From Verrucomicrobiota bacterium (lineage in GTDB: Bacteria; Verrucomicrobiota; Verrucomicrobiia; Chthoniobacterales; UBA10450): a DNA stretch of 28,936 nucleotides. Shown here piece by piece: positions 3,405 through 27,512 of the stretch. Position 1 is the first letter of the stretch. Each line of letters opens with the position of its first letter. The translations under genes were made by a program, and so were the position numbers. The notes under the pieces were generated by a model, which saw only the letters and a list, made by a program, of their open reading frames with translations, was not told the DNA's origin and did not search any database. The stretch is from assembly GCA_041167145.1 (NCBI GenBank), contig JBEEGY010000106.1, positions 1 to 28,936 on the forward strand. The letters are read 5' to 3'.

Positions 3405-3428
3405 AACCAAGATCGACAATTACTTCCG

Positions 3429-3454
3429 AGCGCGAACGGTCTCCCGTTCGCGCT
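3429..3454. terminator. Hairpin between convergent genes, probable bidirectional terminator
   Basis: AGCGCGAACGG-TCTC-CCGTTCGCGCT is a perfect 11-bp stem with a 4-nt loop, lying between stops at 3404 and 3471. The U-tract is weak. Confidence 0.65.
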
Positions 3455-3470
3455 TGTCGTTTATGCGTAC

Positions 3471-4598
3471 CTAGCGGCGGCCCTGCTGCTTGATGAAGCG
3501 GCCGCGATTAAGGGAGCGCAGCTGTTTCAGCAGAAATTCGCCGTCCCGCCGAATCAATTTGCCGTCAAAGTAGATTTCCCCGCCGCCGTATTCAGGGCGC
3601 TGAATATTCACCATGTCCCAGTGCACCTGACTGCGATTTCCATTGTCCGCTTCTTCGTAAGCCTGACCCGGTGTGAAGTGAAAGGATCCGGCGATCTTTT
3701 CGTCGAATAAAATGTCGCGCATCGGTTCCAGAATATGTGGATTAAACGCAAGCGAAAATTCGCCGATGTAACGCGCGCCCGCGTCGGAATCAAGAATCTT
3801 ATTAAGCTTGTCAGTTTGATTGCTGGTTGCGTGGACGATCTTGCCATCACGAAACTCCAGCCGGATTCCGTCGAAACCGATGCCCTGATAAATAGTCGGT
3901 GCATTAAAAGTAATGTGACCGTGCACGGAATTCTTGACAGGTGCGGTGAAGACTTCCCCGTCGGGAATATTGCGGTCGCCTCCACAAATCACAGCCGGTA
4001 TCTTCTTAACGCTGAAGCGCAGGTCGGTACCCGGTCCTTTAACTTCAACCCGATCCGTCTTTTGTAACAAAGCCTTGAGCGCTTTCATTCCCGGCTGCAG
4101 CTTTCGATAATCGAGAGTGCACACATCAAAGTAAAAATTCTCAAAGGCTTCCGTGCTCATGGAGGCGAGCTGGGCCATCGATGGCGTTGGCCATCGCAGC
4201 ACAACCCACTTGGTTTTCTTTACTCTTTGGTCCTGCACCGGGCGCATTTTTTTCGCTACCAATTGCAATTTCGCTACCGGCACGTCAGACATTTCCGTGA
4301 TGTTATTGCTGCCGCGCAAAGCGATATAGGCGTCCATCTTCTTCATTCGCGCCAGCTCATGCCCGGCCGCGAGATCTAATTGTCGATCCGACGCCTTAAG
4401 CGCTATTTCGCGGTTAACTTGCGCGCGCTGGATCTGCACGAATGGAATTGCGCCCGCCTGTCGCGCCGCGCGAATCAATGCGATTGGCATTTCATCGGGA
4501 ACATCGAACGCTTCGATCAAAACTTTTTCATCGTGTTTTAGCCTGATTGAGTATTCGACCAGAAGTTTTGCGAGCTTATCGAAACGGGTGTCGTGCAT
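3471..4598 (-). CDS. Peptidase M29 family aminopeptidase (AmpS/aminopeptidase II type)
   Basis: N-terminal [58 protein letters not shown] metal-binding motifs. Confidence 0.9.
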
Positions 4599-24624: not shown

Positions 24625-24660
24625 TTTGGCGATCTTGCCTAAGATCGACATCTCACTCAT

Positions 24661-25068
24661 ATGAACTTGCGCAGTCGAGCCGTTCCGGTTCATCCAGGGA
24701 TTCAACTCGCGCCTTTGGTTGATGTCCTCCTCCTCCTCCTCATTTTTTTCCTGATGACCTGGAACGCCGCTCGCAACGAAAACGAACTCGACGTGAAAGT
24801 CCCCAAGGCTTCGTCGGCGAAAGAGAAAACAGCGCCGATCGGCGATGTGGTCGTGAATGTGAAAGCGGATGGCAATGTGATAGTCAATCGACGAACGCTT
24901 AGCGCGCCGGAATTGGGCGAATTGTTGAAGGGTCTTGTCCAGCTCAACCCGGAACAGGCGGTCGTGATTCGCGGAGATGAGACCGGCGCTTACAAGAATA
25001 TTATCGGCATTCTCAACCTTTGTACGGAAGCCGGCATTACCAACGTAGCTTTCGCTACAGCCAAATGA
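24661..25068 (+). CDS. ExbD/TolR biopolymer-transport protein
   Basis: IQLAPLVDVLLLLLIFFLMT (TM Asp); DVKVPKAS; VVIRGDETGAYKNIIGILN. Confidence 0.9.
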   Translation: MNLRSRAVPVHPGIQLAPLVDVLLLLLIFFLMTWNAARNENELDVKVPKASSAKEKTAPIGDVVVNVKADGNVIVNRRTLSAPELGELLKGLVQLNPEQAVVIRGDETGAYKNIIGILNLCTEAGITNVAFATAK

Positions 25069-27512
25069 GCATTGCGCGCTGCGTGGCCGGTCTTCTTGGA
25101 CTGGCTACGTTGCTCCTAACTGATCCAATTGTTTTCGCACAACGCCCGACCGAGGTGCGCCGTGCTCAGCCTGCGAATGACACTCCGGTCCCGCGTGCGT
25201 TGCCGCCTGAAGAAATCCCTCCGCCGCCTGTCGCCTCTGCGCCATCGTCGCCGGAATCCGAATCGCCTCCGCGGCGTCAACTCGATTACGCCAACGCTCT
25301 TTTTACCCGCAAGTTGTACGATCTCGCCGTCCCCGAATATCAAAAGTATCTCGAGAATTACCCCGGCGCTCCCGGCCGCGCCAATGCCTACTTCTCGCTC
25401 GGCGAATGCTATCGCAATCTCGGCAAGGCGGGGACGGCACGCACGAATTTCCAAAAAGTGCTCGATGATTATGGCGAAAGCGATTTTGCCGGGTCGGCTG
25501 CCTACGCCCTCGCCGAGATGGCTTTCACAAACAAGAACTATGCGGCCGCGCTCCCGCTTTTTCACCGCTCTGCCGCCAAGTCGAAAGAATCCGCCGTCGC
25601 CCTTTCCGCGCGGTATTTTGAAGCACGCTGTCTCGAGATTCTCGATCGCAAGGATGAAGCCTGTGATATTTATCTTCAGGTAGCCGAGGTAAAAAATCCG
25701 AATCCCTATCGTGAAGATGCGCGGCAGACCGGCGCTGCGCTTGCCTTGGCTCGGGGGCGCAAAACCGATGCGCTGAGACAATACGAAGCGCTTTCTAACG
25801 AAACGCAGAAACCTGCGTTAAAGGCGGAAGCAGCCGTGCGTGCTGGCTTGCTTGCGGTCGATCTTCAACAGCCCGAAAAAGGCAAGATCGACAAGGCGAT
25901 GGGCGAGAAAGCTCAGGCCCTCTTGCAAAAGGCACGGGCTTTGCCCGAAGGGGGGCGGTGGCGGGGGATTGCGCAAGTGGGACTGCTGCGTTTGCAATTT
26001 CAGTCCGGCCAATTCGCGCAATTACTGGCCGATTACAAAAAGGTTCAGGAACAACTTCCCGAAGAAGCGCGTGCCGAAGTCATGTTGTTCGCCGCCAACA
26101 GTCACCGGCAACTGGGGGACACCGCGGAGGCGGAGGAGCTTTACCGGCAAATCATTGCCAAATATGCCAATCGTGAGGAGGGCAGGGAGGCTCGTTATCA
26201 GCGACTCATTAATGTCTACAACTCCGATCCAAACGCGCTCCTCGCCGAAGTGGATGAGTTCCTTCAATCGAACCCAACGGCCGAACGCGCCGATCAGGCG
26301 AAACTGTTAAAGGCGGAGGCGCTTTACAAACAGCAGAAGTTCGCGGAAGCAGCACCCATTTATGCAGAGCTCCGCGCTTCGCAGCTTTCAGGAAAGCTGC
26401 GGGCGGAAACGGCCTACAAGCTTGGTTGGTGTTACGTGCAGATGAAAGACGTTCCGGGCATTGTAGAGGCGTTCGGTTTCTTTATTCAGGCGTTTCCTGA
26501 TAATGCCCAGGCGCCGTCCGCTCTCGCCCAGCGCGCTTTAGTGTATCAACAGGACAAAAATTACAACGCCGCCTTGTCCGATCTGAACATCATCCTGACG
26601 AAGTATCCGGCAGCGAAAGAACGAGAGGCGGCATTGCAACAGAAGGCCTTGATTCTCGGGCAGCAGGAAAATCCGAAAGGAATGACCGATGCGTTCAAAC
26701 AGCTCTTAAAGGAGTTTCCCAAGAGCAGTGTCGCCGCTCAGGCGCAGTATTACATCGGCAAAGCTGCGTTTGAAGCCAAAGACTACAAAACTGCGCTCGC
26801 TGGTCTTAACGCCGCTCGCCAGCTCAACAAAGAGCAATACTACAATCTCGCTACTGTCCGCATTATTTCGTGTCACTTTTACATGAAGAACCGGCCGGCA
26901 CTGACAAAGGAGATGGATGAATTCATGGCGGCGAGTTCGCCAACGGCTGCGCCGGCTGAGATATTGGAGTGGCTCGGCATCGAGTATTACAACGAGAAGA
27001 ATTATCCCGCGGCCGAAAAGTATCTCAGCGCCTTGGGCAAGATCGACAGTCGCGGAAACGCCAAGCCGGACTTTTGGTTCTATCTTGGCGACGCGGCATC
27101 CAGGTTGAAAAATTTCGATGAAGCGGAGAATGCATTCAGTAATTATTTACAGACCGCTACCGATCCTGCCGGTAAAGCAAAAGTGTTGCTCGCGCTCGGC
27201 GCTGTTAAAATCAGCGCGCACAAAGCCGACGACGCGCAAAAGATCGCCGAGGAAATCATGACGCTGCAGCCGGAAGGGCGCGTGAATGCAGAAGCGCGTC
27301 TCCTTGCCGGCGACGTGCAACTCGAGCGCGGCAATTTCGACGAAGCTGGCAAGGCGTTCATGGGCGTCGCCTTGCTCTATGATGATCCTGCCATCACGCC
27401 GCGCGCCTTGCAGAAGGCCGCCCAGTCCTATCAACGCGCCGGTCGCACAGCGGAGGCCGACCGCGTCAGCCAGCAATTGCGAGAGAAGTATCCGAACTAC
27501 GCTGGCGGTTAG
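25065..27512 (+). CDS. Large exported multi-TPR protein (CpoB/YbgF/BamD-like repeats)
   Basis: ATGA overlap with exbD. Signal peptide ending VFA-Q; Pro-rich linker; many TPR pairs (AYFSLGECYRNLG, TAYKLGWCY, AQYYIGKAAF, WFYLGDAA). Confidence 0.85.
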   Translation: MSIARCVAGLLGLATLLLTDPIVFAQRPTEVRRAQPANDTPVPRALPPEEIPPPPVASAPSSPESESPPRRQLDYANALFTRKLYDLAVPEYQKYLENYPGAPGRANAYFSLGECYRNLGKAGTARTNFQKVLDDYGESDFAGSAAYALAEMAFTNKNYAAALPLFHRSAAKSKESAVALSARYFEARCLEILDRKDEACDIYLQVAEVKNPNPYREDARQTGAALALARGRKTDALRQYEALSNETQKPALKAEAAVRAGLLAVDLQQPEKGKIDKAMGEKAQALLQKARALPEGGRWRGIAQVGLLRLQFQSGQFAQLLADYKKVQEQLPEEARAEVMLFAANSHRQLGDTAEAEELYRQIIAKYANREEGREARYQRLINVYNSDPNALLAEVDEFLQSNPTAERADQAKLLKAEALYKQQKFAEAAPIYAELRASQLSGKLRAETAYKLGWCYVQMKDVPGIVEAFGFFIQAFPDNAQAPSALAQRALVYQQDKNYNAALSDLNIILTKYPAAKEREAALQQKALILGQQENPKGMTDAFKQLLKEFPKSSVAAQAQYYIGKAAFEAKDYKTALAGLNAARQLNKEQYYNLATVRIISCHFYMKNRPALTKEMDEFMAASSPTAAPAEILEWLGIEYYNEKNYPAAEKYLSALGKIDSRGNAKPDFWFYLGDAASRLKNFDEAENAFSNYLQTATDPAGKAKVLLALGAVKISAHKADDAQKIAEEIMTLQPEGRVNAEARLLAGDVQLERGNFDEAGKAFMGVALLYDDPAITPRALQKAAQSYQRAGRTAEADRVSQQLREKYPNYAGG

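Follow-up and report, generated by a model that had tools for sequence, protein, structure and literature searches.

Contig C106 of a Verrucomicrobiota metagenome-assembled genome (MAG) is a stretch of 28,936 nucleotides, which we call the window, and it carries 12 exact copies of one non-palindromic 10-mer, AAGATCGACA, nine on the plus strand and three on the minus strand. An initial annotation, made from the letters of the window, had listed these copies with their coordinates and strands, and all of them were found there. In fact, AAGATCGACA (word A) is the commonest 10-mer of the whole source MAG (G000; relatives' genomes are numbered in the same way), and it is abundant in some genera of one family of soil bacteria, others of which are filled with a second, unrelated word, GCCTAACGA (word B). 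On balance, and judging from genome sequences, we read word A as an uptake-sequence-like word, probably built by biased uptake and recombination of DNA. To our knowledge, the only non-palindromic words with such a footprint are the uptake tags of Neisseria and Haemophilus.

An excess that belongs to the DNA word

The genome that holds the window spans 2,057,686 bases in 372 contigs (75% complete, 55.9% G+C) and contains 1,025 copies of AAGATCGACA, about one per 2 kb, divided 534 to 491 by contig strand. The other top-ranking 10-mers are overlapping shifts of the same word, and the first unrelated ones, GC-rich triplet repeats, reach about 130 copies. Against the 1,025 copies observed, Markov models expect 2.9 (order 0), 15 (order 3) or 90 (order 5); at the higher orders the word already raises its own expectation, and a maximal-order ranking of 10-mers was discarded as meaningless because its sub-words are dominated by AAGATCGACA. 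Dinucleotide-preserving shuffles of the window yield 0.08 +/- 0.27 copies, with a maximum of one, against the 12 observed. Sites with at most one mismatch number 27 in the window, where 2.55 are expected, and 15 of these are one-mismatch copies, of which at least eight had been claimed. Thus, the over-representation first noticed in the window is confirmed, and the density stays above background genome-wide.

The word is also sharp. Its 30 one-mismatch neighbours have 1-90 copies each in G000, the central ATCG being least tolerant, and rival 10-mers that contain GATCGA are not equally frequent. Around it, G is preferred at -2/-3, C at -1 (59%) and A or T at +10 (92%), with any base except A at +11 and C at +14, which gives an extended consensus of approximately g-C-AAGATCGACA-W-b-n-n-C. 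In the window a pyrimidine precedes 10 of the 12 copies and A or T follows 11 of them, as first reported. Because these preferences are the same for intergenic copies and in three different reading frames, they belong to the DNA word and not to coding. Apart from such weak preferences close to the word, the sequence within 20 bases of it is random, and AAGATCGACA is not the core of a longer repeat.

A purpose-written simple gene finder called 1,822 genes in G000, covering 86.0% of the genome, and 86.2% of the copies (884) are genic; since this share equals the coding share, the word prefers neither coding nor non-coding DNA. Copies are spread uniformly within genes and use all six frames, being read as xVDL (385), KID (233), [LMV]SI[FL] (120), xDR[HQ] (84), RST (55) and CRS (7). 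That 618 of the 884 coding copies encode V-D-L or K-I-D could suggest an artefact of codon or peptide usage, but intergenic density equals genic density and codon-aware nulls fall far below the observed count. A synonymous-codon shuffle within each gene, which keeps every protein and each gene's codon usage, leaves 63.6 +/- 7.3 genic copies against 884, and a shuffle of codon order leaves 7.6 +/- 2.8; the earlier statement that the word is not a codon artefact therefore holds.

In fact, the word has acted on the proteome. V-D-L occurs 2.84 times and K-I-D 4.29 times as often as amino-acid frequencies predict, against 0.81 and 0.60 for the reversed tripeptides L-D-V and D-I-K. The string GTCGATCTT encodes 446 of the 632 V-D-L tripeptides of G000 (19 expected), and R-S-T is written with the rare AGA codon 62 times, where 0.3 are expected. 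AAGATCGACA has thus inflated the V-D-L and K-I-D tripeptides and changed the proteome. Comparison of core and accessory genes, proposed as a check, was made in a relative, G007, where the density is 1.06 copies per kb in genes that have a G000 homologue (60% identity or more) and 0.69-0.72 per kb in the remaining genes, a modest difference measured against a reference that is only 75% complete.

The word has no strand polarity. Its orientation in G000 does not correlate with contig GC skew (rho 0.06, p 0.39), a skew that tracks gene strand (rho 0.35). Along a contiguous 400 kb of G007, over which the cumulative skew rises steadily, 203 copies are forward and 196 reverse, and in each of the 151 family genomes the two orientations are about equally numerous. 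The strand-bias check suggested at the outset therefore excludes a polar word of the Chi or KOPS kind. Spacing is close to random, with a coefficient of variation (CV) of 1.1 and about one copy per 1-2 kb.

Word-free gaps could be read in G007, the contigs of G000 being too short. In 400 kb of contig C9 of G007, a genome with one copy per kb, only two such gaps exceed 5 kb. The first (L098:6312-17398, C9 66.3-77.4 kb) contains a T2SSE ATPase, unknown neighbours and the orthologue of a 163-amino-acid (aa) pilin-like gene of G000, and the second (L111:5036-14846, C9 325.0-334.8 kb) contains a 308-aa N_methyl protein, a 1,071-aa unknown protein and an MshEN/PilB-like ATPase. Both gaps, with their pilus- or secretion-type genes, may be recently acquired or fast-evolving islands.

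Orthologous sites and a second word

The window ugd protein was used to collect 80 loci from other species. These are soil Verrucomicrobiota of the Chthoniobacterales ('Spartobacteria'), some of them Candidatus Udaeobacter, and DNA nearly identical to the window is present in soil metagenome runs; the host is a soil member of the Chthoniobacterales.

In the ugd alignment (81 species), the two window copies lie on the plus strand in a gene on the minus strand. The copy at 6041..6050, read as N-V-D-L, is exact in 14 species and the copy at 6938..6947, read as D-V-D-L, in 12. The roughly 67 other species keep V-D-L and vary its synonymous positions freely (CGTCGATCTC, GGTTGACCTG and others), and the species that keep the exact word still vary at flanking synonymous sites. 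Synonymous positions are thus free elsewhere and fixed within the word, and therefore the constraint acts on the DNA word and not on the protein; the alignment to orthologues that had been called for bears out conservation at the DNA level, against synonymous drift, at both sites.

Over the window as a whole, the sites show both conservation and turnover. Across four word-rich genera (about 72-74% DNA identity), window sites are exact in 25-43% of cases, compared with 3-7% for any 10-mer. Four one-mismatch copies of the window are exact at the orthologous position in relatives: AAGATCGGCA at 5669..5678 (plus strand) in G011 and G016, AAGATCGACG at 15208..15217 (plus) in G011, G016 and G007, AAAATCGACA at 16913..16922 (minus) in G007 and AAGGTCGACA at 20915..20924 (minus) in G001. 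Other sites are lineage-specific, and a genome of the word-B type has no exact word A at any orthologous window site.

The window genes are ordinary Gram-negative housekeeping genes (TPR proteins, M29 and M28 peptidases, rsmB, ugd, an LptD-like protein, a ketosynthase pair, mqnD, parB, a SurA-like PPIase, glgE and exbBD), and the frames first described for the copies, namely xVDL, [ML]SI[LF] and KID with three copies intergenic, proved right. Besides ugd, V-D-L is written on the plus strand in two genes of the minus strand, both times as D-V-D-L: at 10886..10895 in a ketosynthase gene (exact in G011, two mismatches in G001, G016 and G007) and at 15424..15433 in mqnD/VitK2_biosynth, where the copy is not conserved in the relatives compared. 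The S-I frame is used at 4842..4851 (plus) in rsmB, a gene on the minus strand (M-S-I-L; exact in G007, one mismatch in G001), and by two minus-strand copies in genes of the plus strand, at 16984..16993 in an M28 peptidase gene (L-S-I-L; lineage-specific, 4-5 mismatches in relatives) and at 20338..20347 in a GCV_T/ygfZ-like gene (L-S-I-F; one mismatch in G001). An 830-aa TPR gene holds two plus-strand copies, 25884..25893 (K-I-D-K) and 27039..27048 (K-I-D-S). The intergenic copies lie at 3409..3418 (plus), between a 1085-aa TPR gene and the M29 peptidase gene, at 21728..21737 (minus), upstream of glgE, and at 24641..24650 (plus), between exbB and exbD; four bases upstream of the last, on the opposite strand, is a one-mismatch copy at 24627-24636.

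Close strains were compared over 20 kb with Logan contigs of four soil runs, which drop rare variants and offer too few sites for statistics. The strains differ by about 0.5%, and one listed difference falls inside a copy: an A>G change at window position 6044 in one run (X5), the fourth base of the ugd copy 6041-6050. The site is thus conserved across genera and yet variable among close strains. In these comparisons, metagenome contigs pile up to 10-100 times the depth found elsewhere at window positions 12095-12210 and 13006-13672 and share differences upstream of an RRM-protein gene and over a tRNA region, which are probably conserved segments common to other organisms in the samples.

Word A is restricted to one clade. 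Among 31 relatives it is abundant in nine genera of the same family, reaching 2,607 copies in 2.6 Mb. Twelve other families of the order have 0-19 copies, and the reversed-word control has 0-2. Extending the survey to 151 genomes of the family, we found at least 100 copies per Mb in about 39 genomes from 14 of the 36 genera, with a maximum of about 1,600 per Mb and up to about 10-fold variation in density inside one genus. The genomes G003, G008, G015 and G147 are unpublished, and none of our conclusions depends on them alone. Viral contigs were scanned with a 14-mer, and only single chance matches appeared among the matches listed, 80 loci having been examined.

Word B, in full GCCTAACGA(G), was seen in ugd loci that lack word A. 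It is hyper-abundant in its turn and fills other genera, with up to 4,336 copies in 3.2 Mb, and it stands at control level in G000 (35 copies against 39 for the control). The lineage-specificity supposed for the word is thus borne out, with word A in 14 of 36 genera, word B in others and other families at background. One genus, g40, carries both words (4,653 and 1,803 copies in the 2.9 Mb of G040), and one 14-species genus carries neither. A third word was sought in genomes poor in both (G002, G010, G012 and G017, about 100 kb each), and none emerged, only low A or B. Within G040 the two words have no fixed spacing or orientation and cluster together only mildly, and a composite A+B signal was rejected. 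The two are fused there as GCCTAACGAAAGATCGACA at three sites (contigs C5 and C1; L263-L276), and a copy of word B is about twice as likely as a random position to lie within 30 bases of word A.

A ugd tree, which is based on a single gene with the word columns removed and has many poorly supported forks, places rows rich in word A around the window and rows with word B in a large clade of their own. MAGs labelled Udaeobacter belong to a nested clade that keeps only residual copies of word A. In fact, whole genera have lost the word yet keep a few copies at conserved sites.

Biased uptake, the proposed explanation, and its rivals

To explain these results, we propose that cells of this clade would take up free DNA by a type IV pilus / secretin / ComEC / DprA route, some component of which would bind word-bearing DNA more readily. 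Better-matching fragments would be imported and recombined more often, near-matches would become exact copies faster than mutation erodes them (a molecular drive), and the word would settle wherever coding tolerates it. The set of properties described above is what biased uptake with recombination has been argued to produce in the two families with known uptake sequences (PMC1939737, PMC2817400). The uptake suggestion made from the window gains from the tests named at the outset for separating such a word from a polarised or codon-driven one, all of which came out uptake-like. The machinery gives a mixed picture: most competence genes are present, but neither a canonical ComEA in most word-rich genomes searched nor a receptor was found.

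Two described systems serve for comparison. The uptake signal sequence (USS) of the Pasteurellaceae has in Haemophilus influenzae a 9-bp core, AAGTGCGGT, with weaker flanks, and its predicted receptor is the minor pilin ComN (PMC12616744); the counts are 1,471 for H. influenzae and 765 for A. pleuropneumoniae (PMC2817400). AAGATCGACA resembles it in its short non-palindromic core with weaker flanks, in having unpaired copies that point either way, and in density (1,025 copies in G000). Further likenesses are genic copies in several frames, inflated tripeptides, fewer copies in genes without homologues and types that differ between sister clades. However, the sequences are unrelated and the phylum is different. 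The genic share of AAGATCGACA equals the coding share (86%), as opposed to 65% or 49% for the USS, and its tripeptides are inflated 2.8-4.3 fold and not about 2 fold; in Haemophilus, Actinobacillus and Neisseria the corresponding tripeptides are about doubled (Findlay and Redfield, PMC2817400). Canonical ComEA, which most of the word-rich genomes searched did not yield, is another point of difference, as described below.

The DNA uptake sequence (DUS) of the Neisseriaceae has the core GCCGTCTGAA, a 12-mer form (AT-DUS) and eight dialects, and its receptor is the minor pilin ComP (PMC3630211, PMC3868556). Like the DUS, AAGATCGACA is an exact word of 10-12 bases found about once per 1-2 kb, lineage-specific, with versions that differ between related genera and densities that vary by species, in genomes that have type IV pilus machinery, ComEC and DprA. 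Unlike DUS dialects, which differ by 1-2 bases, words A and B are unrelated. The DUS is also mostly intergenic (34.5% in open reading frames), whereas AAGATCGACA shows no intergenic enrichment and no excess of pairs. DUS often form inverted pairs that act as terminators.

Several results weigh against an uptake tag. Close inverted pairs of AAGATCGACA number 26 genome-wide against 38 direct ones, and without an excess the terminator arrangement of Neisseria is absent. Genes with typical and with atypical codon usage do not differ in word density. The organisms are uncultured and known only as MAGs. A search for ComEA, ComEC and ComP-like pilins had been proposed. G000 and four relatives have ComEC and DprA, together with two or three secretins and between four and six PilT-family ATPases that pass the curated cut-off. 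Searches for canonical ComEA (HHH_3 / TIGR00426) did not find it in G000, in the 100%-complete congener G001 or in the word-rich G009, G013, G016 and G018; ComEA is patchy, and where present it does not track word density. ComEC occurs in 142 of the 151 family genomes, and the genus that lacks both words has it in all 14 of its genomes; therefore competence genes do not discriminate word-rich from word-poor genomes. ComEC of G007, a genome with one of the highest word densities, is divided next to a T6 run into two open reading frames in different frames. The split, at L262:2301-2317 (contig C9 near 459.8 kb), may be a real frameshift or a long-read assembly error.

The pilins weigh the same way. 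A search of G000 by N-terminal motif and then Pfam gave seven pilin-like genes, with matches to N_methyl/T2SSG and one sub-threshold match to ComP_DUS, and no ComP orthologue. The sub-threshold match (20.2 bits against a cut-off of 27.3) is a 205-aa protein encoded at C167:28-642 (L116), which adjoins two PilB-like ATPases; even congeners have orthologues with no more than about 60% identity to it, and such orthologues occur in genomes of either word type. Four of the seven pilins were searched across relatives, none follows the word type, and no candidate receptor emerged from them.

The word may then be no uptake tag at all, and be kept by an undescribed process such as word-directed repair, gene conversion or a genome-wide 'self' mark that some cytoplasmic protein reads. 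Such a mechanism would have arisen at least twice in one family with unrelated words, and could maintain two of them together within a single genome. The ComEA and pilin results and the even density over codon-usage classes leave room for it. We consider this unlikely, if not negligibly so.

A drive without uptake, in which a repair, gene-conversion or modification-linked process converts near-matches to the exact word, would resemble what has been proposed for HIP1 of cyanobacteria (GCGATCGC). HIP1 is palindromic and associated with methyltransferases that target its core, and it is hyper-abundant and is not known to be an uptake signal; therefore such a footprint is not proof of uptake, a further point against an uptake tag. 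AAGATCGACA resembles HIP1 in being hyper-abundant, genic in all frames, lineage-specific and in containing GATC. Any DNA-level process that favours the exact word would leave the same footprint, with the word conserved in the DNA, all frames in use, a distorted proteome and near-matches whose counterparts in relatives are exact, and such a drive agrees with the flat density across codon-usage classes, with the ComEA result and with the presence of GATC and TCGA in AAGATCGACA. However, AAGATCGACA is non-palindromic and has 10 contiguous bases plus flanks, longer than any methyltransferase or very-short-patch repair site that we know of. Genes without a conserved homologue also have about one third fewer copies, which speaks against a drive of this kind.

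The methylation-linked origin that the overlapping GATC/TCGA core had left open is not supported. After AAGATCGACA is masked in G000, the observed/expected ratio (O/E) is 1.00 for GATC, 1.05 for GATCGA and 1.10 for TCGA, and GCCTAACGA contains neither palindrome. Dam-like D12 methyltransferases occur in 17 of the 151 family genomes, word-rich and word-poor alike, and do not co-vary with the word; C5 enzymes are also sporadic. An apparent correlation of Dam-like enzymes with the word among 31 genomes (5 of 9 word-rich, 0 of 10 word-poor) vanished in the 151. Overall, a drive without uptake seems to us rather improbable.

Less probable again, and doubtful in our view, is a selected binding site for a nucleoid-associated or condensin-loading factor, or a 'self' mark for a nuclease or defence system. 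The sharp core, the frame-independent flanks, the conservation at orthologous positions and the near-random spacing (CV 1.1, about one per 1-2 kb) would all suit such a site. Against it, thousands of sites of tiny value would be hard to keep by site-by-site selection against codon preference and protein sequence, an argument taken from the DUS/USS literature (PMC1939737) that would extend to AAGATCGACA. Density differs up to about 10-fold among species within a genus, the word has vanished from whole genera with a few copies left at conserved sites, and two unrelated words occupy sister genera and, in one genus, occur together without fixed spacing, all of which argues against a selected site.

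A strand-polarised word, be it Chi (RecBCD/AddAB) or KOPS/SRS (FtsK/SpoIIIE), is effectively excluded and very improbable: AAGATCGACA is short, non-palindromic and over-represented on chromosomes as these words are, but Chi and KOPS/AIMS have 5-8 bases, modest enrichment and strong polarisation with replication, whereas AAGATCGACA has 10-11 specified bases, is 40-350 fold enriched and is unpolarised on all three measures given above (rho 0.06, 203/196 over 400 kb, near-equal totals in 151 genomes). Weakest of all, and next to impossible, is the idea that codon or peptide usage created the word or that it sits at the core of a mobile repeat dispersed over the genome (REP/MITE), which is likewise effectively excluded by the shuffles (64 against 884) and by the 86% genic share of a word with no longer conserved unit and with flanks that are random but for the weak preferences beside it. 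G000 does contain two REP-like families, TGTCATCCCGAGCGG.GCGAGGG, with about 107 copies of which 81% are intergenic, and the hairpin CTGTAGCGGCGGTCTATGACCGCCG, with about 51 copies of which 84% are, and these, unlike AAGATCGACA, have long consensus flanks; the window has no copy of the TGTCATCCCGAGCGG family and one copy of the CTGTAGCGGCGGTCTATGACCGCCG core, at 10339.

What the words would mean for the family

In the literature searched, the strings AAGATCGACA and GCCTAACGA appear only inside primers and constructs, and no link is made between uptake sequences and Verrucomicrobia or Udaeobacter. Uptake tags are described there only for Neisseriaceae and Pasteurellaceae (PMC1939737, PMC3630211, 10.1101/2025.10.24.684340), and the last of these, a recent comparative study, still regards them as limited to the two families. 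New here are the family-wide map of both words, the two-word genus and the polarity test on a long contig, together with the negative results for ComEA, ComEC, Dam-like enzymes and pilins as correlates. As a practical matter, AAGATCGACA offers an inexpensive marker for binning and for linking contigs or viruses to these hosts, and it could guide attempts at transforming a member in cultivation.

Should the word prove to be no uptake tag, an undescribed process would be writing 10-mers into genomes. If it is one, uptake tags would have arisen independently in another phylum, in the family to which Candidatus Udaeobacter belongs. Candidatus Udaeobacter is among the most abundant soil bacteria. 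We envision that natural transformation with self-recognition would then take place in uncultured soil bacteria, with a bearing on gene flow and species cohesion. The family would be a natural experiment on the evolution of uptake specificity, with two unrelated words, a genus where both occur together and genera where the word has decayed, a range wider than that of the DUS dialects with their 1-2 base differences.

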